Assembly: GCA_963765765.1 (NCBI GenBank)
Contig: CAVXYC010000029.1
Location: 32,001 to 96,000, forward strand
Direction: 5' to 3'
Length of the DNA stretch: 64,000 bases
Source of the DNA: an uncultured Chloroflexia bacterium
GTDB lineage: Bacteria > Chloroflexota > UBA6077 > JACCZL01
Below, one piece after another: positions 3,208-42,273 of this stretch. The translations under genes and the position numbers were made by a program. The number at the start of each line of letters is the position of its first letter. Position 1 is the first letter of the stretch. A model generated the notes under the pieces. The model did no database searches, had not been told where the DNA came from, and was given only the letters and a program-made list of their open reading frames with translations.

Positions 3208-4183
3208 AGTGTGGGAGGCGGACGACGAGCTCGCCGCCAAGCTCAGTCTGCTCAGCGAGACCGTCATCCACGAGGCTGGCCAGAAGAGCCGCGAGATCAA
3301 CTTCTTCGGATTCGTGTCCGGCTGGTAGGTTGGCCACAACTGCGCGCCATTCGACAAAGTCATCGTGATCGAATGCTCGAAGCGCGTTGACGATACGGCC
3401 GCGCCAACGCCTGCGGGCCGCGCCCGTATCGGGGCGTGCGGCGTACTCAGTTCGAGCTTCCCGGACCCTGCGGACAGGCCCTCCACTCGACTCGGTTTCT
3501 CGTCGCCAGCGGCAGAGCGCAGCGGCGGGACAGAGCTCACATTGGGGGACTACCGCTCCGCAGATTGTGGCACCAAGGTCCATGAGAGCCTGATTCCAGC
3601 GGTATGCGTCTCCGACAGGTAGGACCGCCTCGGCGAGCTTCCAGGCGATCGACTCGCTCACTCCATCACGCTCGCCCAGGATGAGTCGACCGAGCACCCG
3701 ACGGACATTTGTGTCTACGACCGTTGTTTGCTGTTCGAAGGCGAAACACGCGACGGCGCCGGCTGTGTATCGACCCAGGCCGGGCAGCGATTGCAGATCC
3801 GCGAGCGTCTCAGGGAGCACGCCGTCGAAGCGCTCCTTAGCCGCCCTGGCGGCAAGGTGGAGATATCGCGCACGGCGGTTGTAGCCCAGTGGGGACCACA
3901 CCCTCAGGACTTCACTGAGCGGAGCATCAGCCAGGGCGCTAAGCGTTGGAAATCGCTGGAGAAATTGCTCGTACTTCGGCAGTACCCGGTCAACCTGCGT
4001 CTGCTGGAGCATGATCTCCGAAACGAGTACTTGGTACGGATCACGCGTCCGCCGCCAGGGTAATTCGCGGCTGTTGCCATCGTACCAACGAAAGATGGCG
4101 TCATGGAGCGACGCGTAAGAATCCCTTCCGTCGTCGGTCGATGAAGCGCGAGTTATATTCAGTTTTGGACTTGCTCCCGGCAT
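3206..4183 (-). CDS. mutY: A/G-specific adenine glycosylase
   Basis: RELPWR, PYQVLVSEIMLQQTQV, WSPLGYNRRARYLH, HhH LPGLGRYTA, VDTNVRRV, NQALMDLGATIC and a CxxCP..C Fe-S motif. Start uncertain. Confidence 0.92.
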   Translation of the reverse strand: MPGASPKLNITRASSTDDGRDSYASLHDAIFRWYDGNSRELPWRRTRDPYQVLVSEIMLQQTQVDRVLPKYEQFLQRFPTLSALADAPLSEVLRVWSPLGYNRRARYLHLAARAAKERFDGVLPETLADLQSLPGLGRYTAGAVACFAFEQQTTVVDTNVRRVLGRLILGERDGVSESIAWKLAEAVLPVGDAYRWNQALMDLGATICGAVVPQCELCPAAALCRWRRETESSGGPVRRVREARTEYAARPDTGAARRRWRGRIVNALRAFDHDDFVEWRAVVANLPAGHESEEVDLAALLASLVDDGLAEQTELGGELVVRLPH

Positions 4184-4243
4184 CGGAAAAGCATACCATC
4201 CGAGCTTGTCGCCCCAGTTCGCTAACTTGGGGCCGATGTATTC

Positions 4244-7081
4244 ATGAGCATCGTCCAGGCGCCAACGAGAAGGTCCGGCACCCGTCGAATTCAGGATGAG
4301 CCCGCCCGGGTTCATTTCCCTGACGCTGGCGCGACGGCAGCATCCTCACCGCGCCGAGTAGCCGCCCCGAGCAGGCCGGCAAACTCAGTACTCGACTCGA
4401 GCGTCACCTCCCTTGTAGCGCTGAGTGTCATCGCAATCGCGATGCTCGAGCTGGCCCTCATGATTGGCGATTGGTTTGGAAGCCTCCTCGCCATGCTCGC
4501 GTCGGCCATGGCGCTTGTGGCGGCGATCACATCCGGGCTTGCCTATCTCTCAGTCGAGCCGCGTGAAAAGCTCGCCTGGCTCGCCGCCTGGCTAGGTGCC
4601 GGAGTTCTGATGCTGGGGCTAGCAATGCTTGCCATGGTTGGCGGCACGCTCGGTACGCCCGCGCAACAGTGGGCAGAGCGGGTTTTGATCTGCGCTGTTC
4701 CTTTGCTGCTGGCGGCGGCGCTTCTCCGCGTAGACGGCGAGCTCACCACATTTCGAACGCTGAAGCTTGTGGCCGACATTCTCGTATTGGGCTTCACCAT
4801 CGTTATCGGCGTCACCGTCATCAGTGACGCCGATAGCATCGTCCTGACGAGTCGCGGCGCGGCCATGGTTGAATCGGGCGTTTTTGCCAGTGCCTACGTA
4901 TGTCTTGCCTTTGGCTGGATCATCGTGGCGCGACCATTCTTGCTCCGCAGTCGGATAACGCCGCCGGCGGCGTTTGCCTGGGGCTGCGTTGTGATCTCGG
5001 GGGGCGCCTGCGCTCAAGCACTGGCTATGGTCCATATTCTGCCAAGTCGATGGATCGGGGTTCCATTCTGGATCGTCGGCATCGCGTCGCTGTGTTACGC
5101 GGGCTATCTCGGAGCACGCGGAGATCGCGTGATGGGCGCTGAGCAGACCGACGCGTCGATGCTCTTCAGCAGTCGGCTCCACCTCATCCCGTCCATCGCC
5201 GCGGCCTTGCTGCTGCTGGCCATCTGGAGCAGTCAGGCGGTGACGCTCTCGCCGCCTTCGCTGGTCGTGTACTTCGCCTCAAACGTTCTGGCGGGGCTCA
5301 TCGTTGCACGACTCATCATCACGGTCTGCGAAAACTCATCGCTTCTCACGCATATTGAAGGCACCATCGAAAATGAGGAGAGCTTCCGCGATCTCGGTGT
5401 GGCCCTCAACTCGAGTTTGGAGATCCAGCGCGTCTTCCAGCACGTCTGTAAGATTGGCGCAGTCATCATGCGCGCCGACCTGGCGGTACTTTGGCTCGTT
5501 GACCGTAGGGCTCAGGACCTCGAGCTCGTTGAGCTGGTGGGCCGCCCTCGTCAAGACTTCGTTGGCCGGCGCATCTCGCTGAACGATCTTCAGTCGGTGG
5601 CTGTGCGGGTGGTACGGTCCGGCGATCCGGAGGTCATCCCCTACGCGCTGGGATCACGCAACTCCAACCCGTTCCTCAACACGATGTTCCACTCTCAGTG
5701 TGTTCTCGGCGTACCGCTCACGCGTCAGGACCATCAGCCGGTTGGCGCGCTCGTCTTTTGCAGCAGTCGGAACCCCACCGCATTCCAGAAGCGGGACACG
5801 GCGAAAGCTGAAGTACTGGCCGTCCAGGCCGTGGTAGCAATGGACAATGCGCGGCTTTACGGTGCTCAACACGATCGACTTCAGGAAATGTCCGCTCTCT
5901 TTGAGATCGCACAGGCTGCCAGTCGAACGTTCTCTACGCATGAGCTCTGCAATGAGCTTCTTGTCATCCTTGGACACGTGGTGGCGTATCGCTCCGCCAC
6001 CGTTTACCTGACTGATACCAGCACCGGCGTGCTCCGTGGAGCAGTTCATAACATCAGGCCGAACGACGAAGGGGGTAGACCCCCGCGGCCAATCGGTCCA
6101 ACCGCCCTCGCGTCTCAGGTGTTCGAAGACGCGCGAGCAGCCTCAGCGGAATATGGCCCTGACGATCCGGAGGCGCGTCGCGGGCACCCGCCAACGCTCG
6201 TTCGAATCGCAGTGCCGCTGCCATCCAAAGAGGGCCCTCCGCTCGGGGTAGTGGAAGTGGAGAGTCATCAGGCTGATGCATTTGATCGCACGACGATCAA
6301 TCTGCTGACGTCCTTGGCGCATAATGCTGCCCTGGCGATTGTGAATCTCCACCTCGTTGAGGAAGCGCGTCAAGTGGCGGCACTCAAAGAGCTGGACCGT
6401 CTCAAAGACGAGCTCCTTGCTACCGTCTCCCACGAGCTCCGGACACCGCTCGGCTCCATCAAGGGATACTCCACAACGCTGATGAAGCATGCCGCCAGGC
6501 TCAGCGATGAAGAGCGACAAGAGTTTCTCACGATCATCGATGAAGAAGCCGATCGTCTGAACGAGCTCATTGGAAACCTTCTCGACCTCTCAAGTCTGCA
6601 AGCCGGCATGTTGTCGATGCGGCGGGAGCCGATCCGCTTGCGCGAAATCGCGGACACCGCGGTGAGGCGAGCGGGCCGCCGATCAGAGCAGCATGATGTC
6701 AGCCTAGATTGGGCGGCTGATCCCGTTATTCTTGCCGACTCCAAGCGTATGGAGCAGGTGTTCATGAACTTGCTCGTGAACGCCATAAAGTACTCTCCAG
6801 ACGGCGGTCTTGTCCTTATGCGCGCCGAGCAAGATCAGGGATATCTGATCGTGAGCGTCACCGACGAGGGTGTTGGCATCCCGAGCGGAGAGGTCGGTAG
6901 AATCTTCGATCGCTTTCATCGAGTGGAAGGTGAGCTCAAGCACCGTATCGGCGGGACGGGGCTTGGTCTGGCGATCTGTCGTCGTCTCATTGATGCCCAC
7001 CAGGGAAAGATCTGGGTGGAAAGCCAACTTGGGAAAGGCAGCACGTTCTATATTTCGCTGCCGATTCACGGAAAAGATTGA
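4244..7081 (+). CDS. membrane sensor histidine kinase (multi-TM, two GAF domains, HisKA, HATPase)
   Basis: About 10 hydrophobic segments in the N-terminal 360 aa, two GAF-like regions, H-box SHELRTPL, NLLVNAIKYS, DEGVGI, FDRFHR, GTGLGL. Confidence 0.92.
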   Translation: MSIVQAPTRRSGTRRIQDEPARVHFPDAGATAASSPRRVAAPSRPANSVLDSSVTSLVALSVIAIAMLELALMIGDWFGSLLAMLASAMALVAAITSGLAYLSVEPREKLAWLAAWLGAGVLMLGLAMLAMVGGTLGTPAQQWAERVLICAVPLLLAAALLRVDGELTTFRTLKLVADILVLGFTIVIGVTVISDADSIVLTSRGAAMVESGVFASAYVCLAFGWIIVARPFLLRSRITPPAAFAWGCVVISGGACAQALAMVHILPSRWIGVPFWIVGIASLCYAGYLGARGDRVMGAEQTDASMLFSSRLHLIPSIAAALLLLAIWSSQAVTLSPPSLVVYFASNVLAGLIVARLIITVCENSSLLTHIEGTIENEESFRDLGVALNSSLEIQRVFQHVCKIGAVIMRADLAVLWLVDRRAQDLELVELVGRPRQDFVGRRISLNDLQSVAVRVVRSGDPEVIPYALGSRNSNPFLNTMFHSQCVLGVPLTRQDHQPVGALVFCSSRNPTAFQKRDTAKAEVLAVQAVVAMDNARLYGAQHDRLQEMSALFEIAQAASRTFSTHELCNELLVILGHVVAYRSATVYLTDTSTGVLRGAVHNIRPNDEGGRPPRPIGPTALASQVFEDARAASAEYGPDDPEARRGHPPTLVRIAVPLPSKEGPPLGVVEVESHQADAFDRTTINLLTSLAHNAALAIVNLHLVEEARQVAALKELDRLKDELLATVSHELRTPLGSIKGYSTTLMKHAARLSDEERQEFLTIIDEEADRLNELIGNLLDLSSLQAGMLSMRREPIRLREIADTAVRRAGRRSEQHDVSLDWAADPVILADSKRMEQVFMNLLVNAIKYSPDGGLVLMRAEQDQGYLIVSVTDEGVGIPSGEVGRIFDRFHRVEGELKHRIGGTGLGLAICRRLIDAHQGKIWVESQLGKGSTFYISLPIHGKD

Positions 7082-7779
7082 TGAATACCAAGAGAGCCTC
7101 CGTACTTGTCGTAGATGACGACCCACGCCTTCTTCGCTTCGTTCAGCGGAATCTGGAGCTGAATGGGTATCGCACCGTTACGGCCATGGATGGCTTGGCC
7201 GCCCTGACCGCGTGCGAAGCGCAGGAGCTCGACTTATTGCTGGTGGACCTCGGAATCCCGGGTATCGATGGATTTGAAGTCACGCGTCGCGTGCGCGAAT
7301 TTTCGACTTTGCCGATCATCATCATTACGGCACGCGACAACGAGCAGGACAAGGTGAGAGGCCTTGACGCTGGCGCAGATGATTACCTGACGAAGCCATT
7401 TGGCGAACATGAGCTAATGGCTCGGGTGCGAGCGGTGCTTCGTCGAGCCAAGCTCTATGCTGTTGACCAGGGGCAGCCGGCCTTCCAGACAGGTGAGCTC
7501 ACTGTTGACTTCGCTCAGCAGCTCGCACTTATCAGTGATAAACCCGCGAATCTCACGCCGACTGAATTCCGCATTGTTTCGCACCTTGCGAAAAGTGCCG
7601 GACGAGTCGTCACGCAGACCGATCTGCTGACGAAGGTTTGGGGACCTGAGTACAAAGACGAAGCGCACCTCTTGCGGGTCAATATTGCTCGGCTTCGCGG
7701 CAAGATTGAGCCCGACACGAGCAACCCGCGCTACGTAATCACTCGACCCGGGGTCGGCTACGTTCTGAACAAGAATTAG
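7078..7779 (+). CDS. OmpR/KdpE-family DNA-binding response regulator
   Basis: LVVDDD, phosphoacceptor LLVDL, GADDYLTKPF and winged helix LTPTEF...VNIARLRGKIE...GVGY. Overlaps the kinase stop codon. Confidence 0.93.
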   Translation: MMNTKRASVLVVDDDPRLLRFVQRNLELNGYRTVTAMDGLAALTACEAQELDLLLVDLGIPGIDGFEVTRRVREFSTLPIIIITARDNEQDKVRGLDAGADDYLTKPFGEHELMARVRAVLRRAKLYAVDQGQPAFQTGELTVDFAQQLALISDKPANLTPTEFRIVSHLAKSAGRVVTQTDLLTKVWGPEYKDEAHLLRVNIARLRGKIEPDTSNPRYVITRPGVGYVLNKN

Positions 7780-7848
7780 CCCAGACAGTTCATCCCGGAC
7801 GTCGCTAGACACTGCGCCAATCTCGTTTAAACAATGTTCTAATCCCGC

Positions 7849-7870
7849 GCGATGATCGGAAGATCATCGC
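7849..7870 (+). terminator. stable hairpin downstream of the response regulator (possible terminator or 3' stem)
   Basis: GCGATGATC-GGAA-GATCATCGC, a perfect 9-bp stem with a GNRA loop. No clear U-tract. Confidence 0.4.
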
Positions 7871-7983
7871 CATTCATAGTGTTCCGCTTTCCACGCGTTG
7901 CGCCCCAACACTACCCGGACATCGAGTGATGCAAAGTGCACACGCGAGACTAACTCCGGCCGGTTCATGTCCCGCGTATCGGT

Positions 7984-8035
7984 CTGTGATGCCACTGTGA
8001 TGAAAGTGGACGCCCAGCGTAACGGGCCTGTGATG
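7984..8035. promoter_or_regulatory. 11-bp-phased direct-repeat array, candidate OmpR/PhoB-family binding site
   Basis: CTGTGATG at 7984, 7995 and 8028, with degenerate GCGTAACG at 8017. All are at multiples of 11 bp. Confidence 0.6.
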
Positions 8036-8186
8036 CGATAGTGCGGATGATGCTGGTGGCGGTGGACCTAGCCAGTAGCTCCGGCATCGGGGCGATGGGG
8101 AAGAGCTACCGTGACCATGACGGTTGTGTGGCGTGAAATTGGGGGGTCAATGGCACGTTGCACAACCGCATCGTGACTTTTGGATT

Positions 8187-8396
8187 ATGAACTCAAGAGC
8201 CGTCGGTTCAACCACGAGTGCTAGCGCCACTCAACAGGCTCGTCCCGAGTCTGTTTTGAGCACGACTGATCTTCAGCGTCTCACATTGTTCAAGTGGCGA
8301 TATACGCTTGAGGCGCAGGGCTTCACTACTCCCCAATGCGACGGGTTACTTTTCCTGCGCTGGCTTAGGGTACGTCGACCGCTCACACTCCGATAA
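8187..8396 (+). CDS. small hypothetical protein (69 aa) with an internally repeated helical motif
   Basis: The ORF fills the intergenic space. LSTTDLQRLTLFKWRY and FTTPQCDGLLFLRWLR resemble each other. Confidence 0.6.
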   Translation: MNSRAVGSTTSASATQQARPESVLSTTDLQRLTLFKWRYTLEAQGFTTPQCDGLLFLRWLRVRRPLTLR

Positions 8397-8490
8397 CTCC
8401 TTCCTCTAGCCCTGATGACAGATTAGGGCTTGCAGCTTGTACGAAATTCCCAGTACGCTTCCGACCCTTGCGGGGGCGTTGGCACTGCTC

Positions 8491-8994
8491 ATGATGGATG
8501 TTGGTTTCAGCCTGAGGGCCGCGACTCTCGACGATCAGCCTGAGATTCGAGGCCGAGTGACTGTCACGCTCAACCATCCCGAGGGTGGGGCTCGACCGCC
8601 AAGTCTCCGCGGTTCTATTGAACGAGGCGAAGTCTTACTTCTCGAGTTTTTTGACCCACGCGAGCGTCAGACACGGATAGGCGGTTTCATCGAATACCGA
8701 TTGCGCGTTGACGACAGTCTCACCATTCGTGAGGTAGGCGTGGAGGAAGGTCCGTCTCAGGTGGCGATTGCCAAGCATCTCTTGAATGGCGTGCTGGATT
8801 CCGTGAGACCGGTAGCGGCGACGGTAAAGGTTCTTCGCGATGCAAGCTTCTGGAACGAGATTCTCGCGACGATCGTGGGCTTCCAGATTGAGGGGCCGCC
8901 TGAGTACAGTCGGAGGCACTATTTCAATGTTTGGGAATGGAGACGCGAGCGTGCCAGCGCGCGCAACACGCGACCTCGGGGTGGCAGGCGTTAG
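8491..8994 (+). CDS. hypothetical protein, possibly GNAT-like fold
   Basis: FSLRAATLDD start, IGGFIEY..., TIREVGV...IAKHLL pattern resemble GNAT beta-strands and motif A, but the CoA-binding Gly motif is degenerate. Confidence 0.55.
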   Translation: MMDVGFSLRAATLDDQPEIRGRVTVTLNHPEGGARPPSLRGSIERGEVLLLEFFDPRERQTRIGGFIEYRLRVDDSLTIREVGVEEGPSQVAIAKHLLNGVLDSVRPVAATVKVLRDASFWNEILATIVGFQIEGPPEYSRRHYFNVWEWRRERASARNTRPRGGRR

Positions 8995-32459: not shown

Positions 32460-33596
32460 TTGGGTCAAAGGATTCGGGTGGGTGTCCTCTTTGGAGGACG
32501 ATCGGGCGAGCACGAGGTCTCGCTGGCTTCAGCAGAGTCGATACTCCGATACATCGACCAGGCTAAGTACGAGGTCGTGCCAATTGGTATCACGCGCGAA
32601 GGGCGCTGGCTCGCGTCTGGAGATCCACTCGCGGCGCTCAAGTCCGGTCAAACCCACAAATTCCTCGCGTCAGGTGACGGCGGTGAAAAGGTTCTCCCGG
32701 CAGCGCTGCTCCCTGACCCAGTTCACGGAGGTCTCGTGACCTGGTCAGAGGGCGCGGCCTCTTCTCAGCTTCGCGAGCTTGCTTCAGTCGACGTCGTATT
32801 TCCCGTACTCCATGGCACATTTGGTGAGGACGGAACTATCCAGGGGCTCCTGGAGATCGCCGGCCTGCCTTACGTGGGCGCTGGGGTACTCGGATCGTCT
32901 CTGGGTATGGACAAGGGCAAGATGAAGTGGCAATTCCGCGCGCGTGGATTGCCCCTGGCTGACTTTATCGAAATTCGCCGTTCGCGGTTCGAGCGCGATC
33001 CGGAAGCTGTTCTCGCCGAGATTGAGCAGACGCTGGGATTGCCGGCCTTCATCAAGCCCGCACGCCTCGGCTCCAGCGTTGGGGTCAGCAAGGCACGCAC
33101 GAGAACCGAGCTTCGGGACGCGTTGACGCTTGCGGCTGAGTTTGACGATCGGCTGATCGCGGAGCAGAATATCAATGCTCGCGAGCTGGAATGCAGCGTG
33201 CTCGGGAACGAAGAGCCTATCGCCTCCGTAGTCGGAGAAATTATTCCCGCGAATGAGTTCTACGACTATGAGGCCAAGTATCTCGACGAGGGCTCGAAAC
33301 TGGTCATTCCGGCTGAGATCAGTAACGGAATCTCAGACGAAATTCGCGCGATGGCTATTGAGGCATTTGATGCCGTGGACTGCGCGGGAATGGCGCGAGT
33401 TGATTTCTTTCTGGAGCAAGATACGAATCGAGTACTGCTGAACGAGATCAACACGATACCGGGATTCACCAATATCAGCATGTATCCCAAGCTCTGGGAA
33501 GCGTCAGGTTTGAGCTATGGCGATTTGATCGATCGGCTCATTCAGCTTGCCATTGAGCGACATGCGGATCGGGCTCGAAACCGGGTCAATCGTTGA
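32460..33596 (+). CDS. ddl: D-alanine--D-alanine ligase
   Basis: [59 protein letters not shown]. Confidence 0.96.
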
Positions 33597-33695
33597 TGAA
33601 ATCTGGTCAGGACTGCTCAAGGGCTTCCCTCACGGTCAACTCAAGAACATGAGCCACAGGCTAACGACACCTACCGCGGCTCCCCGTTCGGGGAA

Positions 33696-34982
33696 TTAGA
33701 GCTCCGCAAACGCTTCCACCGCCGCATCGATTGTCCGATCAATGTCATCGTCGCGGTGCGCGAGGCTTACGAATGCGGCCTCAAATTGAGATGGCGCGAA
33801 ATAGACGCCACGGGCGAGCATGGCTTGAAAGAAGCGCGCGTATCGAGTTGTGTCGGCCTTCTTGGCGCTCTCGTAGTCAAACACGGGCTGGCCGATAAAG
33901 AAAGACGTCATCATTGAGCCAACTCTGTTTGAGAACATCTCAATGCCGTGCGCCTTCGCCGCTGAGGCGATTCCATCACTGAGCCGGGCTCCGAGTTTCT
34001 CGAGTCGGCCATAAACGCCAGGCTCTTGAAGCGCTCGAAGAGTCGCGAGTCCGGCAGCGACGGCGATGGGATTCCCTGAGAGTGTTCCTGCCTGGTAGAT
34101 CGGTCCGGCGGGTGCCATGCATTGCAGGACATCCCGTCGCCCTCCATAGGCTCCCACAGGCAGGCCTCCGCCGATGATCTTTCCCAGGCAGGTGATATCT
34201 GGGGTGATGCCGAATCGCCCTTGAGCGCCGCTATAGGCGACGCGAAAGCCGGTGATGACCTCGTCAAAAATGAGCAGCGATCCGGAGCGCTCTGTGATCT
34301 GGCGAAGCCCCTGGAGGAATCCGTCTGTAGGGGGCACCACGCCCATATTCCCCGCCACGGGCTCAACGATGACCGCGGCGATGTCTGAACCGAATTGATT
34401 GAATGCCCGTTGGACGCTCTCAAGGTCGTTGTAGCCGGTACTGAGCGTCTCGCTCGCTAGCCCAGGTGGGACGCCAGGGCTATCCGGAGACCCAAGAGTG
34501 AGCGGTCCGGATCCGGCTTTTACTAGTAGGCCGTCGGCGTGTCCGTGATAGCACCCATCGAACTTGATGATCTTGTTTCGACCAGTGAAGCCGCGCGCAA
34601 GGCGTATGGCCGACATCGTCGCTTCAGTACCGGAATTGACCAGCCGAACCATCTCAACGGATGGCAACGCGTCAGTAATGAGCTCAGCCAGCTCTACTTC
34701 TCGTTCGGTGGGTGCACCAAAGCTCGTGCCATTGCTCGCGGTGCGCTGAATGGCCTCGACCACCGATGGATGGCCATGGCCCAAAATCAATGGTCCCCAC
34801 GATCCGACGAAGTCGATGTATTCGCCACCGTCCGCGTCAAAAACGCGTGACCCGGCGCCGCGCTCAATAAACAGTGGCTGACCGCCGACCGAACGAAACG
34901 CGCGAACGGGGCTATTGACTCCGCCGGGAATTACATGTTGTGCGCGGGCGAAAAGGTGCTTTGAGTTCGGGCCGACGCTCAT
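33696..34982 (-). CDS. hemL: glutamate-1-semialdehyde 2,1-aminomutase
   Basis: [71 protein letters not shown]. Confidence 0.96.
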
Positions 34983-35959
34983 GCGCACATCCATCGGCAC
35001 ACGTCGGGGGCATGGTACGAGATGATCATGTCCGCGCCCGCTCGCTTGATACCGGTAAGAATCTCCATCGTTACTCGTTCCTCGTCAAGCCAGCCGTTTG
35101 CCGCGGCAGCCTTGACCATCGCGTACTCTCCGCTCACGTTGTAGGCGACAAGCGGCAGGTCGAATCGATCTCGCGCCATGCGAATCAGGTCGAGGTAAGC
35201 GAGCGCGGGCTTCACCATCATGAAATCGGCGCCTTCGTTTATGTCCAGCTCGATCTCTCGCATCGCCTCACGGGCATTGCCCGAGTCCATCTGATAGGAG
35301 CGGCGATCGCCGAACTGTGGCGTGCTATCCGCGGCTTCGCGAAATGGTCCGTAGAAGCCGGATGCGAACTTGGCGGAATAGGCCATGATGGCCGCTTCCG
35401 AGTATCCCTTTTCATCCAGGGCTTTCCGGATCGAGCCGATTCGGCCATCCATCATGTCGGACGGTGCAATGATGTCCGCACCGGCCTCGGCCTGAGCCAG
35501 GGCTGTCTTGTTCAGGAGCTGGATGGTGGCGTCATTCCGAACGTGGCCGTCCTCCACGATGCCGCAGTGACCGTGACTGGTGTACTCACAAAGACACAGA
35601 TCGGCAATCACGATGAGATCGGGGCAATGCTCCTTCAGCTCCCGTATGGCGACCTGAACGATGCCATCCCGTGCATAAGCTTCAGAACCAAACTCGTCCT
35701 TCGATTGGGGTAGGCCAAAGAGGAGCACGGCGGGAATTCCAAGCTTCGCAACCTCACGGGCGTCCGCCACAACTTCGTCCACCGAAAGCTGGGACACGCC
35801 TGGCATTGATGAGACCGGCTGACGGACACCTCGTCCTGGAGTGACGAAATACGGATAGATGAAATCAGACGGGGAAAGGGCTGTTTCGCGCACCATCCGT
35901 CGCATCGTTTCTGTTCGCCGCAAGCGTCGCATGCGCAGGGCCGGAAATGCACTCGTCAC
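34979..35959 (-). CDS. hemB: porphobilinogen synthase
   Basis: [50 protein letters not shown]. Confidence 0.97.
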
Positions 35960-37494
35960 GGTTGCCCCCTCTCCTGTCTCCGAATTGACCACCAGTCCAC
36001 GACGACGGACACTAAACCCTCGACGGTGTAGTCACTGGCAACGGACTCCACGCGAAGGCCTGCGTTGCGGGCGGCCTCGGCGGTTGTAGGACCAATGCAG
36101 ATACTCGGAATGTTCCGAGCTACTCCCTCACGCTCTTCTCCGACCGCGCTCACGAAGTTGGCGACGGTGGAGGAGCTGGTGAACGTCAGGACGTCAAGTT
36201 CGCATCGGTCAAGAAGGCCGCGGAGCTCCTCCGCGCGATGCGGGGCCGGAACCGTCTTGTAGGCGACAAACGATTCGACAGAAGCCCCCAGCTCCTTGAG
36301 TCCATCGACGATCTCTGTCGGAGCGATATCGCTTCGGAACAACGCAATTCGAGCGTGGTTTACGCCTACTTCCCCGAGCTTCTGCACGATCGCGCTCGAA
36401 ATGAATTTTGGGGGCGTCACATCCGCCTGCAGGCCGTAGCCCCGCAGCGCTCGCGCGGTGGCTGGTCCGATGGCGCAGATGCGCGTGTTACCGAGCACGC
36501 GTACATCCTTCCCGGAATTGAGCAGGCGGTCCATCGTCGCCCTCACTCCATTGGCGCTCGTGAATACCACCCAGTCGAAAGAGCTCAGGCTATGTAGCGC
36601 AGCGTCCAACGTCTCCAAGTGCTCGGTCGGCTGAATATCGATCGCAGGCAGCTCAATTGGCGCGGCTCCTAGCTCACGCAATGAGCGAACGAAGGAGCTT
36701 GACTGTTCTCGCGACCGCGTAACTAGAACTCGAAGGCCGAAAAGCGGGAGGTCCTCGAACCACGATAACTGGTCACGGAGCGCGACGACGTCACCCGCAA
36801 CGAGAATGGCTGGTGGTTTGACTGACTGTGCTCGAGCCCTGTCAGCTATGGTCGCCAACGTTCCAGTCACGGTCCGCTGTCGTGGCGTTGTTCCCCACTG
36901 GATGATCGCAGCAGGCTGGTCTGGCGCGCGGCCCGACCGGATAAGTCGCTCGACAATCTCCGCCATCTGCTCAACTCCCATGAGCACGACAAGCGTATCT
37001 GCACCGTTGGCGAGCGCGTCCCAACGGTGGGAAGACTCCGACTTTGATGGATCCTCGTGACCTGTGAGCACGGTGAATGATGCCGCGATCCCGCGGTGTG
37101 TGACGGGTATGCCGGAGAATTCCGGGGCTGCAAGGGCCGAGCTAATACCCGGGACGATCTCGAATGGAATCCCGTGCTTGCGGAGGCAGAGGGCTTCTTC
37201 TCCGCCTCGTCCGAATACAAACGGATCACCGCCCTTGAGCCGGACTATCTTCTCCCCGGCCTGCGCCAACTCGACAAGCAGGTCATTGATCCCGTCCTGT
37301 GGCACAGCGTGATCGCGCGGTCCTTTACCTACATAGATCCGCCGAGCAGAAGGAGGCGCAAAGTCGAGGACCTCCATCGGGATAAGGCGATCGTGAACGA
37401 CCACGGAAGCATCCTCAAGGCATTGCTTACCGCGAACAGTAAGTAACCCGGGGTTGCCAGGCCCCGCTCCCACCAGTGCAACTTGCCAGATCAC
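35956..37494 (-). CDS. cobA: uroporphyrinogen-III C-methyltransferase / uroporphyrinogen-III synthase fusion (CobA-HemD)
   Basis: [32 protein letters not shown], then HemD motifs VLVTR, FTSANGV, IGPATA, FTSSSTV. Confidence 0.94.
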
Positions 37495-38423
37495 GAACCG
37501 CCCAGCCCTGGATTCGCGAGTCGCGCCATTATTGCTGAAAGGTCGTCTGCAACTAGCCTTCCGAGCTGATCGGCATCTGACGCCGGCCCGGTCCTCTCCG
37601 ATCGTGCCACGTCCTGCCCGGACTCATCGGCGACCACCGCCAACAAATGCAGCTCGTCACCGTTTCGTCGTCCAATGGCCCCCACAGGCACGCGGCAACC
37701 TCCCCCAATAGCTGCCAGAAACGATCGTTCCGCCCGAGTTTCGGTATTCGTTATTTCGTCGTTCACATGGGCCACCAGGGCGAGCGTCTCAGCGTCGTCG
37801 GACCGGCATTGAATCGCCAACGCACCCTGGCCGACCGCCGGGATGCATTGCTCCGGGCTGAACACCGTCGAGATTCTCTGATGAAGCCCGAGGCGACTCA
37901 ATCCAGCGACGGCGATGACCAGGCCATCGAACTGCCCCTCGTCCAACTTGCGGAGGCGAGTGTCAACGTTTCCCCGGACTCCAGCGAATTGCAGATCAGG
38001 ACGGAGCGCCCGTAGCTGTGCAATTCTTCTCGGACTGCCCGTCGCCAGTATCGCGCCTGTCGGCACGTCGGAGAAATCTGTTCCATCGCGAGTGACGAGC
38101 GCATCGCGCGAATCCTCTCGTACCGGGACCGCACCGATCACCAGGCCGGATACTTCCTCTGAGGGCAGATCCTTCAGAGAATGCACGGCAATATCGGCTC
38201 GTCCACTCAAGAGCTCTTCTTCAAGTGCTTTGACAAATACGCCTTCACCGAGCTGGGCCAGAGATATGTCCTGGCGGACGTCCCCACGTGTGCTGACTAT
38301 CTCGATAGACAGCTCCTGTCTGCCGAGAAGCGGCCGAAGCATATCTGCAACAGAGTGCGCCTGCTTTAGCGCCAGGGTGCTGCCGCGGGTGGCTATCCGC
38401 TGCGGGCGCATCCCCGTTGGCAC
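37491..38423 (-). CDS. hemC: hydroxymethylbilane synthase
   Basis: ATRGSTLALKQ, GVFVKALE, AVHSLKDLP, RGNVDTRL, PAVGQGAL, GGCRVP. Confidence 0.96.
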   Translation of the reverse strand: MPTGMRPQRIATRGSTLALKQAHSVADMLRPLLGRQELSIEIVSTRGDVRQDISLAQLGEGVFVKALEEELLSGRADIAVHSLKDLPSEEVSGLVIGAVPVREDSRDALVTRDGTDFSDVPTGAILATGSPRRIAQLRALRPDLQFAGVRGNVDTRLRKLDEGQFDGLVIAVAGLSRLGLHQRISTVFSPEQCIPAVGQGALAIQCRSDDAETLALVAHVNDEITNTETRAERSFLAAIGGGCRVPVGAIGRRNGDELHLLAVVADESGQDVARSERTGPASDADQLGRLVADDLSAIMARLANPGLGGS

Positions 38424-39685
38424 TAGTCGTCAGCCAGGCTAAAGAGGTCGCGAACTGTTCTCGCGTATGCACGACTATCGTGCTCGGTCGAACTCGACTT
38501 GAGTCGAATGATGGGATCATGCAGAAGCTTGTTGACGAGAGCCACAGAGAGCGCCTGCACGACGTTTCTGTCGCGATCCGAGAGGCCTGACAGACGTGTC
38601 AGTGCCCGGTCTAGCTCTGATTGCCGTATCGACTCGGCGCGACTGACCAGCGACTGGATAAGTGGCGTCACCTCGCGACTTTCCCGCCAGGATTCAAAGC
38701 TCGCGACCTCGTCCTCGATCAACGCTTCAGCTTGAGGAAGCTCGAGCTTCCGAATTTCGAGGTTGCGCGAGCAGATTCCATCCAGATCATCGATATTGAA
38801 GAGATGGACATTGGAAACCTCGGCCGCCTCAGGCGCCACGTCACGGGGTACGGCGATATCCACAATGAGCATTGATCGGTCCATTCGCTGGAGCATGGCT
38901 CTCTCAACGTCCTGACGCTCCAGGACATGAGCTCCAGATGCGGTGGAGCTGATGACGATGTCTGATTGGGCGAGCGCAGCGTCGATGTCGTCCAGCGTGC
39001 AGGGCTCCCCGCCCAGTCTCCGCGCAATCCGCTCGGCACTTGCCATACCACGGCTTCCGACGATCAAGCGACTAACGCCGTGAGCTCGCAGGGTGCGGAC
39101 AGTGAGCTCACCCATCTTGCCCGCGCCAATGACGAGAGCCGTGAGGCCGCGCAAATCTCCGAGGACATCTCGTGCAAGCTCGACGGCCGCATAACTAACA
39201 CTCACCGCGTTCCTGGCTATGTCGGTCTCAGTCCGAATGCGCTTGCCAGTCGCCAGCGCTTGCTCGAAGAGGCGGGACATCGTCGGACTTAGAGTTTGGT
39301 GCTGTCGTGCAATATCATACGCCGACCGAAGCTGCCCCAGAATTTGCGGCTCACCAATCACCATCGATTCCAGGCCGGAGCTCACGCGAAGTAAATGACG
39401 GACTGCTTCCAGTTGAGCAAAGGTCTCCGTGCGTTCCTCTAGTTCCAGTCCCGGCACCCCGCGCGAATCAGCGAGAAAACGGATCAGCGCCTCACTGCCG
39501 GAGCGCAGGTGGCCGACGTCCGCGTAAATCTCAGTTCGATTGCAGGTCGAGAGAATGACACCCTCATGGGCAAATTGTCCCAGGCGGTCAATCGCCTGGC
39601 CCAGGGTATCTGGAGGAAAGGCCAATCGCTCCCGCAGCTCGAGGGGCGTCGTGTGATGGCTTACGCCCACGGACACGAGCGTCAT
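38423..39685 (-). CDS. hemA: glutamyl-tRNA reductase
   Basis: LSTCNRTE, SGLESMVIGEPQILGQ, SVSYAAV, IGAGKMG, DIAVPRDV. Confidence 0.96.
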   Translation of the reverse strand: MTLVSVGVSHHTTPLELRERLAFPPDTLGQAIDRLGQFAHEGVILSTCNRTEIYADVGHLRSGSEALIRFLADSRGVPGLELEERTETFAQLEAVRHLLRVSSGLESMVIGEPQILGQLRSAYDIARQHQTLSPTMSRLFEQALATGKRIRTETDIARNAVSVSYAAVELARDVLGDLRGLTALVIGAGKMGELTVRTLRAHGVSRLIVGSRGMASAERIARRLGGEPCTLDDIDAALAQSDIVISSTASGAHVLERQDVERAMLQRMDRSMLIVDIAVPRDVAPEAAEVSNVHLFNIDDLDGICSRNLEIRKLELPQAEALIEDEVASFESWRESREVTPLIQSLVSRAESIRQSELDRALTRLSGLSDRDRNVVQALSVALVNKLLHDPIIRLKSSSTEHDSRAYARTVRDLFSLADD

Positions 39686-40335
39686 TTGAGGCTTCCATTG
39701 AGCGCTGTGGCTTCAAGACGCGAAACGATGGTCTTGACTGCTTCGGCACGGCGTCCAGCGCGAATGTGAGCCAGGATTGACGCATCGTGCATGAGCTCTC
39801 GCCATTGGTCTCCAGTTGTCGAGATTTGCGATCCGCGAACCGACTCACGCGCCTCGGCGATGACTTCCAGGAGTGCCAGGCGCTCCTCTGTCAATAGCGT
39901 ATCGAGCTCTTCCCGCAGAAGTCGTGCAAATGCCGGGCTTCGTCCAGATGTGGAGAGGGCTACCGTGACATCGTCGCGCCTTACGACGGCCGGGACATGG
40001 AATGTACCGTCATGCGGCGAATCTGCTCGATTGACGAGGGACCCGTTGTGACGAGCGACTTGCTCAAGCCGAGCGTTCACCTGAGCGCTGTCAGTAGCCA
40101 GGAACACCAGGTTCGCGCCATCCAGGTCTTGTTCATGCGCTTCGCGCTGGATCCAGCGGATGGCCTGATTATCCACCAGATCACGAAGGTCGGGGTGAAC
40201 CCCAGGCGCGATCACCGTCACGTCGGCTCCCGCGTCCAGCAGCCCGCGGGCTTTGCGCAATGCCACCGCTCCGCCACCGATCACCACACAGCGAAGTCCT
40301 TCGACCCGAACGAACATGGGATAGAGGCGAGTCAT
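39682..40335 (-). CDS. precorrin-2 dehydrogenase / sirohydrochlorin ferrochelatase (SirC/Met8/CysG N-terminal type)
   Basis: YPMF, VIGGGAVALRK, VNRADSP..GTFHVPAVVRR, ALSTSGRSPAFAR. Confidence 0.9.
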   Translation of the reverse strand: MTRLYPMFVRVEGLRCVVIGGGAVALRKARGLLDAGADVTVIAPGVHPDLRDLVDNQAIRWIQREAHEQDLDGANLVFLATDSAQVNARLEQVARHNGSLVNRADSPHDGTFHVPAVVRRDDVTVALSTSGRSPAFARLLREELDTLLTEERLALLEVIAEARESVRGSQISTTGDQWRELMHDASILAHIRAGRRAEAVKTIVSRLEATALNGSLK

Positions 40336-40976
40336 TTCGCGGCAACCGTCCTTGTCGCGGCTTCGTGCGCCTCGGTCATGCTGAGCAGGACGTGATCCAT
40401 AAACTGATTGACCCGAATGAGCGCGTCAGCCACACGCGGTCCACGTTGGGGTTGATCTCCAAACCAGCGTGTGACGCTTTCTACGACCGGATTCCGAAAG
40501 AAAAGAAATGCCTGCATCGCATCGTGGAGAGACAGGCCCAGCCGAGCCGCGACCTGACCGTATTCAGTGGCGACCCCCGCTCCATCGCGAAGACTGCGTT
40601 CGCGCTCGCGTTTGGTAGAAGCCAGCACGAATGCCGTGAGCTGGTGGAGCATTGAAGAGCCCAGCGTACGGAAATGCTGACGCTCGACTGGCTCGAGATC
40701 CTGCATCCAGCCATGGTCAGGGTGGCCACGACGCTCTATCTGACCGTAGCGCTCGCGACTGGAGAGGAGGGCGGCGCTCAAGCTGGCTTCCATAGGAGGA
40801 GACGCCTCGGTGAGTTGGTGTAGGTCGTCTTCAAGGTATCGCCTATGGCCGCCAGGAGTGACGTAGGCGCGTACTTTTCCTTCGTCCGTCCAGTGTCGCA
40901 GCGTCGCTTGATTGACGCCGAGCAGCTCGCAGGCTCTACGGATACTGACCCAGCGCACATTGGGATTGACTTCCAT
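40332..40976 (-). CDS. Xis/BldC/MerR-like HTH regulator with all-helical C-terminal domain, first gene of the tetrapyrrole operon
   Basis: WVSIRRACELLGVNQATLRHWTDEGKV...TPGGHRRY winged HTH. Its stop overlaps the start of the next gene (ATGA). Confidence 0.85.
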   Translation of the reverse strand: MEVNPNVRWVSIRRACELLGVNQATLRHWTDEGKVRAYVTPGGHRRYLEDDLHQLTEASPPMEASLSAALLSSRERYGQIERRGHPDHGWMQDLEPVERQHFRTLGSSMLHQLTAFVLASTKRERERSLRDGAGVATEYGQVAARLGLSLHDAMQAFLFFRNPVVESVTRWFGDQPQRGPRVADALIRVNQFMDHVLLSMTEAHEAATRTVAAK

Positions 40977-41000
40977 TCGAGATGTGTCTGTCGATCCCCA

Positions 41001-41075
41001 AAAATCTGTCAAAATCTATCAATCTCTTCGGAAATGCTTCAGAGATAGCTTATGTCGTCGGTATTGAAGCGTCAA
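41001..41075 (-). promoter_or_regulatory. sigma70-type promoter of the tetrapyrrole operon with downstream 10-bp direct repeats
   Basis: Minus strand TTGACG (41075-41070), 17 nt, TAAGCT (41052-41047). Plus-strand repeats AAAATCTGTC 41001-41010, AAAATCTATC 41011-41020 and degenerate GAAATGCTTC 41031-41040. Confidence 0.65.
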
Positions 41076-41202
41076 GAACGCCCGGTTGTATCTGGCTGAG
41101 CGTCACCATGATTTCATAGATACGCGTCCAATCGATACGCGTTCAATCGAAGTTGTCTGGCGTCGGTCTAGGGGACGAAAGCCCTGATAAGATCTACGGC
41201 CT

Positions 41203-42273
41203 ATGCGTGTACTGCTCGCGGGCGGCGGATCCGGAGGCTCGGCAACGCCGGTTCTCGCGGTCGCGGAAAAGCTTCGGGCTCGAGACTCGTCCAGCGAGCT
41301 TCTGTACGTTGGCACGAGCACGGGGCCGGAGCGTGCGCTGGTGGAATCTGCTCGAATCCCATTCCGGAGTGTCCCGAGCGGTAAGCTGCGTCGGTACTTC
41401 GATTTGCAGAACGTCTGGGATGTTGCGAATGTAGGTCGCGGCATGACCCATTCCTTCGGGATCGTTCGCCAATTCAAACCAGATGTCGCCTTCGGAGCAG
41501 GCGGCTTCGCCTGCGTGCCACCTCTCTGGGCCGCGCGGCTATCCAACGTGCCCGTGGTCATTCATCAACAGGACGCCATTCCGGGACTGGCGAATCGCCT
41601 ACTTGTACCAGCCGCCACGTCTATAAGCGTGACCTTTCAGGAGACAATCCACCACTTCCCGAAATCTAAGACGTGGCTCAGTGGGAACCCCGTACGCCAG
41701 TCCGTATTGGAGGGCGACCGCGATCGATTCTTCGCCCGATTCGATCTCGACCCACAACGTCCGCTGGTCCTCATCACGGGAGGGGGTACCGGCGCCCTGC
41801 GACTCAATCAGCTCGCGGCTCAGGCCTCGGAACGGCTGATTCAGCATGTACAGGTGGTACATCTGACAGGGCAGGGGCGGGAGGTTGAAGTCCAGTTTCG
41901 CTCCCCGCACTACCTGCAGCGCGCATTCCTCATTGACGAGATGGCTGACGCTTTGCACGCCGCGACCGTCGTCGTGTCCCGCGCGGGACTTGGAACGCTG
42001 AGTGAGATCGGCGCCCTGGGGCTGGCTGCGATTGTGATACCTATGCCAGGCTCACATCAACTGGCTAATGCCAGGGCGTTCGCTGAGCGCCGCGCCGCTG
42101 ACGTGCTGAACGAGGAGACGCTCACGTCGGACGTGCTTGCTGATCGCGTTTTTCGTCTGATCGCCGACGTTGAGATGCGAGCGGCCCTGGGGGAAGCGGC
42201 CAGGCGTCTGCTCCCCCTTGATGCGGCAGATCGGGTGGCTGATCGCATCCGGGAGCTAGTGGTTGACAGCTAA
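41203..42273 (+). CDS. murG: undecaprenyldiphospho-muramoylpentapeptide N-acetylglucosaminyltransferase
   Basis: AGGGSGGSATP, GKLRRY, GGFACVP, HQQD..PGLAN, GNPVR, TGGGTGA, SRAG, HQLANA. Confidence 0.88.
   Translation: MRVLLAGGGSGGSATPVLAVAEKLRARDSSSELLYVGTSTGPERALVESARIPFRSVPSGKLRRYFDLQNVWDVANVGRGMTHSFGIVRQFKPDVAFGAGGFACVPPLWAARLSNVPVVIHQQDAIPGLANRLLVPAATSISVTFQETIHHFPKSKTWLSGNPVRQSVLEGDRDRFFARFDLDPQRPLVLITGGGTGALRLNQLAAQASERLIQHVQVVHLTGQGREVEVQFRSPHYLQRAFLIDEMADALHAATVVVSRAGLGTLSEIGALGLAAIVIPMPGSHQLANARAFAERRAADVLNEETLTSDVLADRVFRLIADVEMRAALGEAARRLLPLDAADRVADRIRELVVDS

Follow-up and report, generated by a model that had tools for sequence, protein, structure and literature searches.

For all but a few bacterial groups it is, to our knowledge, poorly understood how heme synthesis is controlled at the level of transcription, and a seven-gene hem operon of an uncultured Chloroflexia bacterium (UBA6077; JACCZL01) raises the question of how such control might be exerted by its first gene. 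The operon lies in a stretch of 64,000 nt (assembly GCA_963765765.1, contig CAVXYC010000029.1, positions 32,001-96,000), which was analysed as a whole, is called the window here and supplies the position numbers used below. The answer that we consider likely is that the first gene represents an autoregulated, probably repressing, one-component family of heme-metabolism regulators, in which a BldC-type winged helix-turn-helix (HTH) is combined with a globin domain of the non-heme type. This reading is carried by the architecture, the fold and the operon, and by a repeat motif whose conservation and specificity are evident both in cis, at related regulator genes, and in trans, at hem operons unlinked to the regulator. 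The features concerned are the following, where L002 and L003 denote two related loci.

40332..40976, minus strand: regulator gene, 214 aa; its stop and the sirC start overlap by 4 nt
40806..40952, minus strand: BldC/excisionase-type winged HTH, residues 9-57; R27, W29 and the TPGGHRR wing are invariant
40338..40796, minus strand: residues 61-213, predicted to form a sensor-globin fold of the non-heme RsbR/pXO2-61 type (AlphaFold2 model and structure search)
41070..41075, minus strand: -35-like hexamer TTGACG; same 17-nt spacing in L002, TTGACA in L003
41047..41052, minus strand: -10-like hexamer TAAGCT; identical in L002, TAGGCT in L003
41001..41020, minus strand: putative operator, two 10-bp direct repeats GATAGATTTT / GACAGATTTT (minus-strand reading)
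39682..40335, minus strand: sirC-like gene for precorrin-2 dehydrogenase / siroheme synthase N-terminal domain (NAD_binding_7 and Sirohm_synth_M; TIGR01470 142.6 bits, cut-off 62.3)
38423..39685, minus strand: hemA, glutamyl-tRNA reductase
37491..38423, minus strand: hemC, porphobilinogen deaminase
35956..37494, minus strand: cobA-hemD fusion, uroporphyrinogen-III methyltransferase and synthase
34979..35992, minus strand: hemB, 5-aminolevulinic acid dehydratase
33696..35000, minus strand: hemL, glutamate-1-semialdehyde aminomutase (class-III aminotransferase)

All seven genes are read from the minus strand with the regulator gene first, and consecutive genes overlap by 4, 4, 1, 4, 37 and 22 nt. 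This tightly overlapped operon had been proposed in a preliminary description of the window and was borne out by the gene coordinates and by matches to Pfam and NCBIfam models. Counted from its first TTG, the open reading frame (ORF) of the regulator spans 40332..41012; the likely start is the ATG at 40976, in agreement with the N-termini of homologues. Between 33400 and 41400, four terminator-like sites were found, with 5.5 expected.

Upstream of the regulator gene, the hexamers TTGACG and TAAGCT are separated by a spacer of 17 nt, and the tandem of 10-bp repeats follows just downstream of the -10 element, as the preliminary description had also noted. By coordinate the repeats read AAAATCTGTC (41001-41010) and AAAATCTATC (41011-41020); they are 90% alike at a spacing of 10, and their place, 25 nt upstream of the ATG, corresponds to about +20 to +40 if counted from the presumed start of transcription. 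Each 10-bp unit contains an A/T run beside a conserved AGA, and the units are phased by one helical turn. In L002, the closest relative (86% protein identity), hexamers, spacing and repeats are kept, whereas the spacer sequence and the flanks have diverged; L003 (52%) has TTGACA and TAGGCT together with the same repeats.

A tandem of the core motif, YAGAWTT-N3-YAGAWTT with at most one mismatch, was found a single time in the window, where 0.03 would be expected, and 3 of 100 shuffled sequences gave at least one. In the bacterium's own 6.49-Mb genome the same pattern has nine matches, and the sole perfect copy is the site in the window. The other eight were considered as a wider regulon and discarded, as they are mostly a dispersed CCGCAGATTCACGCAGATTT element and intragenic sites, not heme genes. 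The dispersed intergenic element, which starts with ATCCGCAGATTCACGCAGATTT and accounts for most of the weaker motif matches, was seen at C2:35418, C19:34073-34083, C30:33234 and C19:228481 of this genome; at C2 it has an inverted partner, AAATCTGCGGATAG, at a distance of about 80 nt, and the whole looks like a small repetitive or mobile element.

Two further observations concern the surroundings of the promoter. A second tandem at 41116-41145 consists of two 15-nt copies, ATAGATACGCGTCCA / ATCGATACGCGTTCA, which are 87% alike and each hold the palindrome ACGCGT; it sits between the hem promoter and a divergent murG-like gene (41203-42273, plus strand), and by eye none was seen upstream in L002. 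A 152-aa ORF at 41103-41561 on the minus strand, antisense to the murG-like gene and rich in Arg, Ser and Pro, looks like a shadow ORF.

What kind of protein might bind such repeats is suggested by the N-terminal part of the regulator. Residues 9-57 match MerR (PF00376, E 5.5e-10), HTH_17 (E 6.8e-9) and also MerR_1 in Pfam, and exceed the cut-off of the TIGR01764 excisionase domain (33.9 bits; cut-off 28.8). Among PDB sequences, the family profile came closest to BldC (6amk, E 8.4e-11) and to 8jbs (E 4.1e-10), a putative cobalamin-binding regulator, and the HTH of the structural model superposed on BldC with Z 8.9 and a root-mean-square deviation (rmsd) of 1.1 Å over 52 residues, which agrees with the Xis/BldC/MerR type assigned beforehand. 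Residue conservation was counted here and below in 81 sequences, namely the window protein and those of 80 related loci (L numbers), the best 80 of 585 confirmed relatives. R27, W29, H44, R45 and R46 are present in 81 of 81, and the G-G-H-R-R wing is likewise invariant.

According to PMC5859096, multimers of BldC assemble head to tail on 9-bp direct repeats, AATTXXXX(C), with a His of the wing entering the narrowed AT-rich minor groove and residues of the recognition helix reading the major groove. The regulator shares with BldC of Streptomyces (6amk, 6ama) the MerR-like winged HTH with a GGHRRY wing, and its putative operator likewise consists of phased direct repeats with an AT-rich tract. 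It differs in that BldC is a stand-alone HTH of 68 residues, whereas the regulator adds a globin-fold domain of 150 aa; the repeat period is 10 bp instead of 9 bp, and the recognition-helix residues K26 and R30 of BldC align with A24 and H28. With 37.2 bits, the regulator also stays below the cut-off of 77 for the BldC family NF033787 (HTH_BldC).

The genes accompanying the family point to heme. As judged by tblastn with the six enzymes of the window, hem trunk genes lie downstream of the regulator on the same strand in 29 of the 80 loci. Four more (L025, L033, L035 and L066) end after Ahb-type radical S-adenosylmethionine (SAM) genes, which start 30-48 nt past the regulator match, so that the regulator heads hem or Ahb genes in 33/80 loci; the preliminary description had raised such an association of homologues with hem/ahb genes. 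Loci mostly labelled Dehalococcoidia show the order regulator, radical SAM, radical SAM/SPASM, fused AhbA/B (NirDL-type siroheme decarboxylase), sirC, hemA and hemC. On a quick maximum-likelihood tree (IQ-TREE), the heme-linked label changes 7 times, compared with 26.3 for shuffled labels, and 0/500 shuffles were as low. The window, L002 and L003 form one group (support 97) beside a 14-row group with Ahb-type loci, 15 of these 17 rows being heme-linked, and in a second clade 18 of 22 rows are heme-linked.

Other neighbourhoods were recorded as well. Four paralogous or orthologous regulators lie directly downstream of dnaA (L018, L051, L054, L065), and four lie upstream of a haloacid dehalogenase (HAD) hydrolase gene and dnaN (L032, L059, L067, L071); in L071 a hemC-like match precedes HAD and dnaN, and this locus was counted as heme-linked. 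The only actinobacterial locus among the best 80 is L081 of Intrasporangium sp. (3983-8761), in which the regulator sits between a gene for a NapC/NirT-type (NrfH-like) multiheme cytochrome and nrfH/nrfA-like genes (cytochrome c552).

The distribution was then viewed across the phylum in an even sample of 61 Chloroflexota genomes, including the source genome. The C-terminal domain of the regulator was found in 27 of them, of which 20 have hemA (detected as GlutR_N) and 7 gave no hemA match; in the other 34 the domain was not found, with hemA present in 18 (including G043, flagged unpublished) and not found in 16. Where both genes occur, they lie on the same strand within 5 kb in 10 of the 20 genomes, and in one they are divergent at a distance of 2.7 kb.

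Genomes with the regulator in which hemA was not found show what else the family may accompany. In G024 (L122, G024:C1, 9453-12048), a ChuX/HutX/HemS-like gene, tandem repeats, a PucC-family major facilitator superfamily gene and the regulator follow one another on one strand, which makes this a candidate heme-uptake or utilisation locus in Chloroflexota, judged from its gene content. Because of this locus, regulator and motif appear to be tied to heme itself and not to one biosynthetic route. In the 1.7-Mb genome G062 (L121, G062:C1, 3988-9194), the regulator is followed, in this order, by genes for an AhbD-like radical SAM/SPASM protein, a fused DctM transporter of the tripartite ATP-independent periplasmic (TRAP) type and an NMT1-like binding protein, and salvage of a late heme precursor may be encoded there. 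The regulator is followed by hemC in G010 and lies near imelysin and FTR1 iron-uptake genes in G036. G014, G027 and G039 have a layout of the Limnocylindria type, in which a long ORF precedes the regulator and an ORF of about 370-400 aa follows it on the opposite strand.

Does the repeat motif travel with the regulator? In the 787,482 bases of the 80 loci, both strands taken together, the core tandem has 29 matches. Twenty-four of these, distributed over 18 loci, lie on the regulator strand within the 200 nt that precede the start of the regulator, and three of the other five lie in the same upstream regions on the opposite strand, so that 27/29 are upstream of the regulator. The tandem is present in 14 of 34 heme-linked loci (the window included), for which mononucleotide shuffles predict 0.04 loci, compared with 4 of 39 non-linked loci (two loci with less than 100 nt upstream were dropped) and 1 of 6 loci that were too short to be classed. 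If up to two mismatches on either strand are allowed, the counts become 18/33 for heme-linked loci, 8/41 for those not linked and 1/6 for the short ones. Many sites, for example those of L002, L021, L033, L035 and L080, hold three to four phased copies, and L008, L019 and L070 carry the tandem upstream of the regulator without having hem genes.

If the repeats are the regulator's operator, hem operons that are not linked to the regulator gene should still bear them. Twelve genomes were available for this comparison, three with hemA (G001, G002, G005) and nine from the phylum sample, likewise without linkage (117,005 bases). In 8/12 (G001, G002, G005, G011, G016, G029, G041 and G060), a tandem with at most two mismatches lies no more than about 350 nt ahead of the first hem gene. 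At the hemC-cobA/hemD-hemB-hemL-hemA operon of G001, TTGACA-18-TACAAT is directly followed by four to five phased repeats, two perfect cores begin at about 175 nt before the first hemC residue aligned, and a near-identical tandem, AAGATTTGCACAGATTC, stands upstream of the regulator gene. G002 has a tandem with one mismatch about 20-35 nt upstream of the inferred hemA start on the opposite strand, and in G005 one with two mismatches precedes the first aligned residue of hemC by about 170 nt. Over whole genomes, G001 to G005 have only 7, 3, 0, 4 and 3 tandems with at most one mismatch, and the reversed-pattern control gave 0; because the matches are so few, a tandem within a few hundred bases of a hem operon is very unlikely to arise by chance. 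In the nine-genome set there were nine matches with at most two mismatches, seven of them within 250 nt upstream of hemA, the tandem being perfect in G016 and G041 and carrying two mismatches in G029, G011 and G060. The suggestion that the repeats serve as the regulator's own operator gains from this recurrence upstream of both homologous regulators and unlinked hem operons.

A wider regulon was also sought in G001, G002, G004 and G005 and was rejected, as the other matches adjoin non-heme genes (a methyltransferase, RNase_H_2 / isocitrate dehydrogenase, NuoF, MnmA, heliorhodopsin and others). The heliorhodopsin gene (PF18761, E 1e-102), in L104 (G002:C2, 1603-2424), adjoins a weaker motif match in a Limnocylindria-type genome.

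The repeats might instead be bound by another factor or act as an element of the leader RNA, their nearness to the regulator being incidental. They do lie within the leader that is transcribed, with 25 nt between them and the start codon, and the regulator is their predicted binder. This explanation appears extremely unlikely, since nearly all tandems in the 80 loci lie upstream of the regulator, even in the hem-less loci L008, L019 and L070, and since the motif follows the regulator into the heme-utilisation locus of G024. The orientation of the repeats relative to the downstream gene, which is reversed in G002, G005, G060 and G024, is compatible with a site in DNA but not with one in RNA. 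Moreover, Rfam models applied to 33000-42000 gave no riboswitch or leader RNA and only one match to a snoRNA model, with E 0.67, which was taken as chance.

The position of the repeats also bears on the direction of control. MerR-type proteins are often activators, and BldC activates and represses its targets; the regulator might accordingly activate the hem operon or exert dual control over it, and a -10 hexamer as weak as TAAGCT would be in keeping with activation of the promoter. However, the repeats of the window and of G001 are found downstream of the -10 element, not between or upstream of the hexamers as is usual for activators. Activation or dual control is therefore regarded as unlikely, and repression is inferred from the operator position alone.

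The part of the regulator that follows the HTH matches no Pfam or NCBIfam family in residues 60-214, and the family profile, when compared with PDB sequences, matched in the HTH only, with no match for the C-terminal domain. An AlphaFold2 model based on 43 homologues (predicted local distance difference test, pLDDT, 89.5; predicted template modelling score, pTM, 0.70) places helices at 62-83, 96-118, 122-145, 150-174 and 180-213. Foldseek found nothing in the PDB at E <= 0.001; its best match, CarH 5c8f with E 9.2e-3, was driven by the HTH. In an exhaustive structure search with VIA-align, pXO2-61 was top among the globin matches (Z 13.9, rmsd 2.3 Å, 130/132 residues), followed by stressosome MtR (Z 11.0), the N-terminal domain of MabR/Rv2242 (10.0), the DosC globin (9.6) and RsbR-N (9.2), while phycobiliproteins (Z 8-10) and photocobilin 8j2w (Z 7.9) were weaker globin folds. 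With this method, arrangement alone can give helical proteins a Z of about 13; here the top list consists almost entirely of one fold. The model hence supports the globin/RsbR-N-like domain suggested in the preliminary description.

Sequence comparison points faintly in the same direction. The window protein has no match to RsbRD_N (PF14361), and the homologues P0121 and P0012 reach 15.9 and 13.2 bits (E 0.02 and 0.15), below the cut-off of 24.3. An alignment of the C-terminal domain compared by hhalign with seven Chloroflexota RsbRD_N domains gave a weak match (E 6.7e-4, probability 27%, 103 columns), and comparison with single sequences gave E 0.055 and 0.11. The best ESM Atlas clusters, at 0.85 and 0.84 and thus below the 0.9 level, belong to the same HTH-plus-domain family, one of them automatically named RsbRD_N, and serve as a lead only. 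The domain is found in 948 representative clusters at 50% identity; among the top 150 of these 948 matches, nearly all are proteins of about 200-270 aa with 60-100 aa before the domain, or fragments, and no kinase or STAS fusions were found.

The most conserved positions of the domain are R161 and G140 (81/81 each), D194 and G106 (80/81 each), F157 and L197 (78/81 each) and W90 (75/81). Position 204 is His in 49/81 and Tyr in 27/81, and columns 116 and 139 are Tyr in 66/81 each. The His, Met and Tyr residues that the preliminary description had singled out as possible heme ligands fared worse and are not conserved: H101 is mostly E or R, H111 mostly D, Q or N, H151 mostly A, T or S, M109 mostly L and M154 mostly V, and H195 varies as judged by eye. 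If helix 150-174 is split at P163, R161 stands at the end of the would-be fourth core helix, and it aligns with the R/K of the 'FRLLR' stretch in bona fide RsbRD_N domains. In RsbR-family globins, as stated in PMC8717448, a fatty acid is held by a conserved Arg of the fourth core helix, an analog of the proximal His; from the alignment, R161 would be its equivalent.

The domain is also predicted to dimerise. The homodimer scored 0.60 against 0.00 for the best control, three runs shared at least 90% of the contacts, and the pLDDT of the partner was at least 72; a mark of 0.60 is reached by 20 of 30 solved homo-pairs and by 1 of 23 proteins solved as single chains. The predicted interface is symmetric and formed by residues 149-172 and 179-205. 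This pass may reflect fold likeness, because sensor globins are solved as dimers.

A number of observations weigh against the proposed family of heme regulators or against a tetrapyrrole as its signal. The motif was defined on the repeats of the window and refined by eye on the related loci, so that the counts in cis are partly circular, a problem from which the genome-wide motif controls are free. Even at two mismatches on either strand, 15/33 heme-linked loci lack the tandem, among them a whole subclade of seven (L012, L016, L017, L028, L039, L064 and L073). No tandem was found upstream of hemA in four of the twelve unlinked genomes (G028, G035, G063, G061), the cases in trans are not all independent, as G016, G029 and G041 belong to one genus, and the reversed orientation of the repeats in some genomes counts here as well. 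A consensus promoter scan of 33400-41400 called 0 promoter-like sites; it did not call TTGACG-17-TAAGCT because TAAGCT matches TATAAT at only 3/6 positions. Two clades of the tree are not heme-linked, a Limnocylindria-type clade of 17 rows with the regulator between M20 and M24 peptidase genes and a Thermomicrobiales/Chloroflexia clade of 22 rows with the regulator beside AlkZ, DnaA or other genes. Across the phylum sample, presence and absence of regulator and hemA are coupled loosely (20/27 compared with 18/34). Concerning the ligand, residues 60-214 contain no invariant His in the 81 sequences and no His, Cys or Met column of at least 50% except position 204, which makes canonical globin-type heme ligation unlikely, and the closest folds of the model are non-heme globins said to bind fatty acid. 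Finally, a symmetric dimer as predicted does not obviously fit direct repeats.

Which signal, then, might the globin-fold domain receive? One explanation keeps the control of the hem operon and replaces the signal by a fatty acid or other lipophilic carboxylate, or by stress or redox state, whereby heme synthesis would be coupled to the membrane or physiological state and not to its own product. The best structure matches (pXO2-61, MtR, MabR-N, RsbR-N), the lack of a conserved His and the invariant R161, aligned to the R/K of RsbRD_N, would suit it, given the fatty acid bound through a conserved Arg in RsbR-family globins (PMC8717448). It is nevertheless judged rather unlikely, as the contexts are heme-centred (the hem trunk, Ahb genes, the ChuX/HemS plus PucC locus, and the NrfH/NrfA cytochromes in L081), feedback by a product or intermediate is the simplest logic for a regulator of a biosynthetic operon, and the Arg could equally clamp a propionate.

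Another explanation assigns no ligand to the domain, which would serve the formation of dimers or oligomers in a plain negative autoregulator or in a BldC-like architectural protein that buffers expression. The symmetric dimer predicted through the last helices would agree with this, as would the location of the highly conserved D194 and L197 in the predicted interface and not in a pocket, and BldC itself works without an effector domain (PMC5859096). Yet a sensor fold of 150 aa has been kept across 948 representative clusters, the invariant Arg lies outside the listed interface, and the fold family consists wholly of sensor domains, which leaves a ligand-free domain quite improbable.

For the proposed family of heme-metabolism regulators, a specific mode of sensing can be tentatively imagined, which is possible at best. 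A 'non-heme' globin of the RsbR type might have been turned back into a tetrapyrrole sensor, with R161 clamping a propionate or acetate of heme, coproheme, siroheme or uroporphyrinogen; His or Tyr204 near the predicted dimer axis may add an axial ligand, and the liganded dimer would load the HTHs onto the YAGAWTT repeats.

In more general terms, the regulator would act as follows. Its BldC-type winged HTH would bind the 10-bp phased direct repeats with the core YAGAWTT in the 5' leader directly downstream of the promoter, and several HTHs might line up next to one another along a single face of the leader DNA, hindering promoter clearance or elongation. The bound protein would most likely hinder its own operon, which leads from glutamyl-tRNA to sirohydrochlorin/siroheme, and since the regulator is the first gene of this operon, the control would be negative autoregulation. 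The C-terminal domain is predicted to dimerise through its last two helices and would receive the signal that tunes the loading of the HTHs on DNA. Because the contexts are heme-centred, heme or a carboxylated tetrapyrrole intermediate is favoured as the co-repressor and would be the most likely signal; with plentiful heme, the synthesis operon and the uptake locus would both be shut. The autoregulatory repressor with a tetrapyrrole-binding globin-like domain envisaged in the preliminary description is supported in part, with regard to its own operator, the globin fold and the association with hem genes, and not with regard to the proposed ligand residues.

The route that this operon feeds was considered in the bacterium's own genome (91.8% complete). 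It has a fusion gene for the siroheme decarboxylase AhbA/B and a gene resembling ChdC (C20:686885-688129 and C20:700767-701627), and no match to the ferrochelatase family was found. A URO-D-like match is only partial, an AhbC/D-like radical-SAM match is weak, and an AhbC-like radical SAM gene was not clearly found. AhbA/B and ChdC-like genes without a ferrochelatase match suggest a hybrid route from siroheme via coproheme to heme; a siroheme-dependent route is plausible for this genome, not established, and would explain why sirC and cobA are part of the hem operon. No tandem with at most two mismatches was found in the 22 kb that surround these AhbA/B and ChdC-like genes.

Known systems resemble the regulator in single modules. 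Classical MerR regulators differ from it in carrying a long coiled-coil helix and an effector pocket after the HTH, where a globin fold is predicted here, and in their operator, a palindrome inside a spacer of 19-20 bp, whereas the promoter here has a 17-nt spacer and is followed by direct repeats beyond the -10 element. CarH/LitR proteins have a tetrapyrrole-derived ligand and direct-repeat operators. They share the MerR-type HTH (profile against CarH 5c8d, E 0.0018; against 8jbs, as given above); however, the regulator has neither the B12-binding Rossmann domain nor the B12-binding_2 domain and reaches 14.6 bits with NF052513 against a cut-off of 400. The preliminary description had noted the lack of a CarH-type B12-binding domain, and no such Pfam family (PF02310 / PF02607) appeared even at E <= 10.

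Among globins, RsbR-N, pXO1-118, pXO2-61 and MtR have the fold of the model and no proximal His; their conserved Arg may correspond to the invariant one at the end of the would-be fourth core helix, and the predicted dimer through the last helices is a further likeness. Their globin domain is N-terminal to STAS or kinase domains or stands alone, whereas it is C-terminal to the HTH in the regulator. The heme globin-coupled sensors DosC, BpeGReg, AfGcHK and HemAT have the globin fold (Z 7.6-9.6) and combine a sensor domain with an output module, but the regulator lacks the conserved proximal His, its domain order is reversed, and its output is an HTH and not a GGDEF, kinase or methyl-accepting chemotaxis protein module. 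Photoglobins and phycobiliprotein-type globins are marked by an association with B12-binding domains, a conserved Asp on helix 3, a hydrophobic residue on helix 4 and a bilin pocket. These folds (Z as given above) rank below the top RsbR-type matches, and the B12 domain has no counterpart here. MabR (Rv2242), a PucR-type regulator, uses a non-heme-globin sensor module and controls the mycolic-acid biosynthetic operon, according to PMC11617747. It is likewise a transcription factor with a non-heme globin acting on a biosynthetic operon, and its N-terminal domain is among the better matches of the model (Z 10.0); its globin is N-terminal and followed by a GGDEF-like domain and the PucR HTH, and pathway and phylum are different. 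The modules are each known already, and a globin-sensor transcription factor has a precedent in MabR.

With regard to its inferred role, the matching of heme synthesis or uptake to heme status, the regulator resembles HrrSA/ChrSA, HemKR, Irr, HrtR and PerR. Known regulators of heme status are two-component systems or proteins of the Fur, TetR or PerR type, and we know of none among those just named in which a BldC-type HTH is fused to a globin fold. A literature search found no paper on such a fusion or on this regulator of heme genes, and none on transcriptional control of heme synthesis in Chloroflexota or of the siroheme-dependent (Ahb) route; in databases the homologues bear only the names 'MerR family', 'helix-turn-helix domain-containing' and 'excisionase family'.

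The combination of modules is new and joins two that come from very different settings, developmental control in the case of BldC and the stressosome in the case of the non-heme globin. If the ligand is a tetrapyrrole, this would possibly be the first 'non-heme' globin shown to sense molecules of the heme pathway, and its family would be, for heme metabolism in Chloroflexota, the first one-component repressor that acts by product feedback, covering the Ahb and trunk heme pathways and, where hemA was not found, heme uptake as well. The 10-bp repeat motif could be used to annotate heme regulons in metagenome-assembled genomes, and the family offers a concrete regulator, operator and set of target genes across a large and mostly uncultured phylum.

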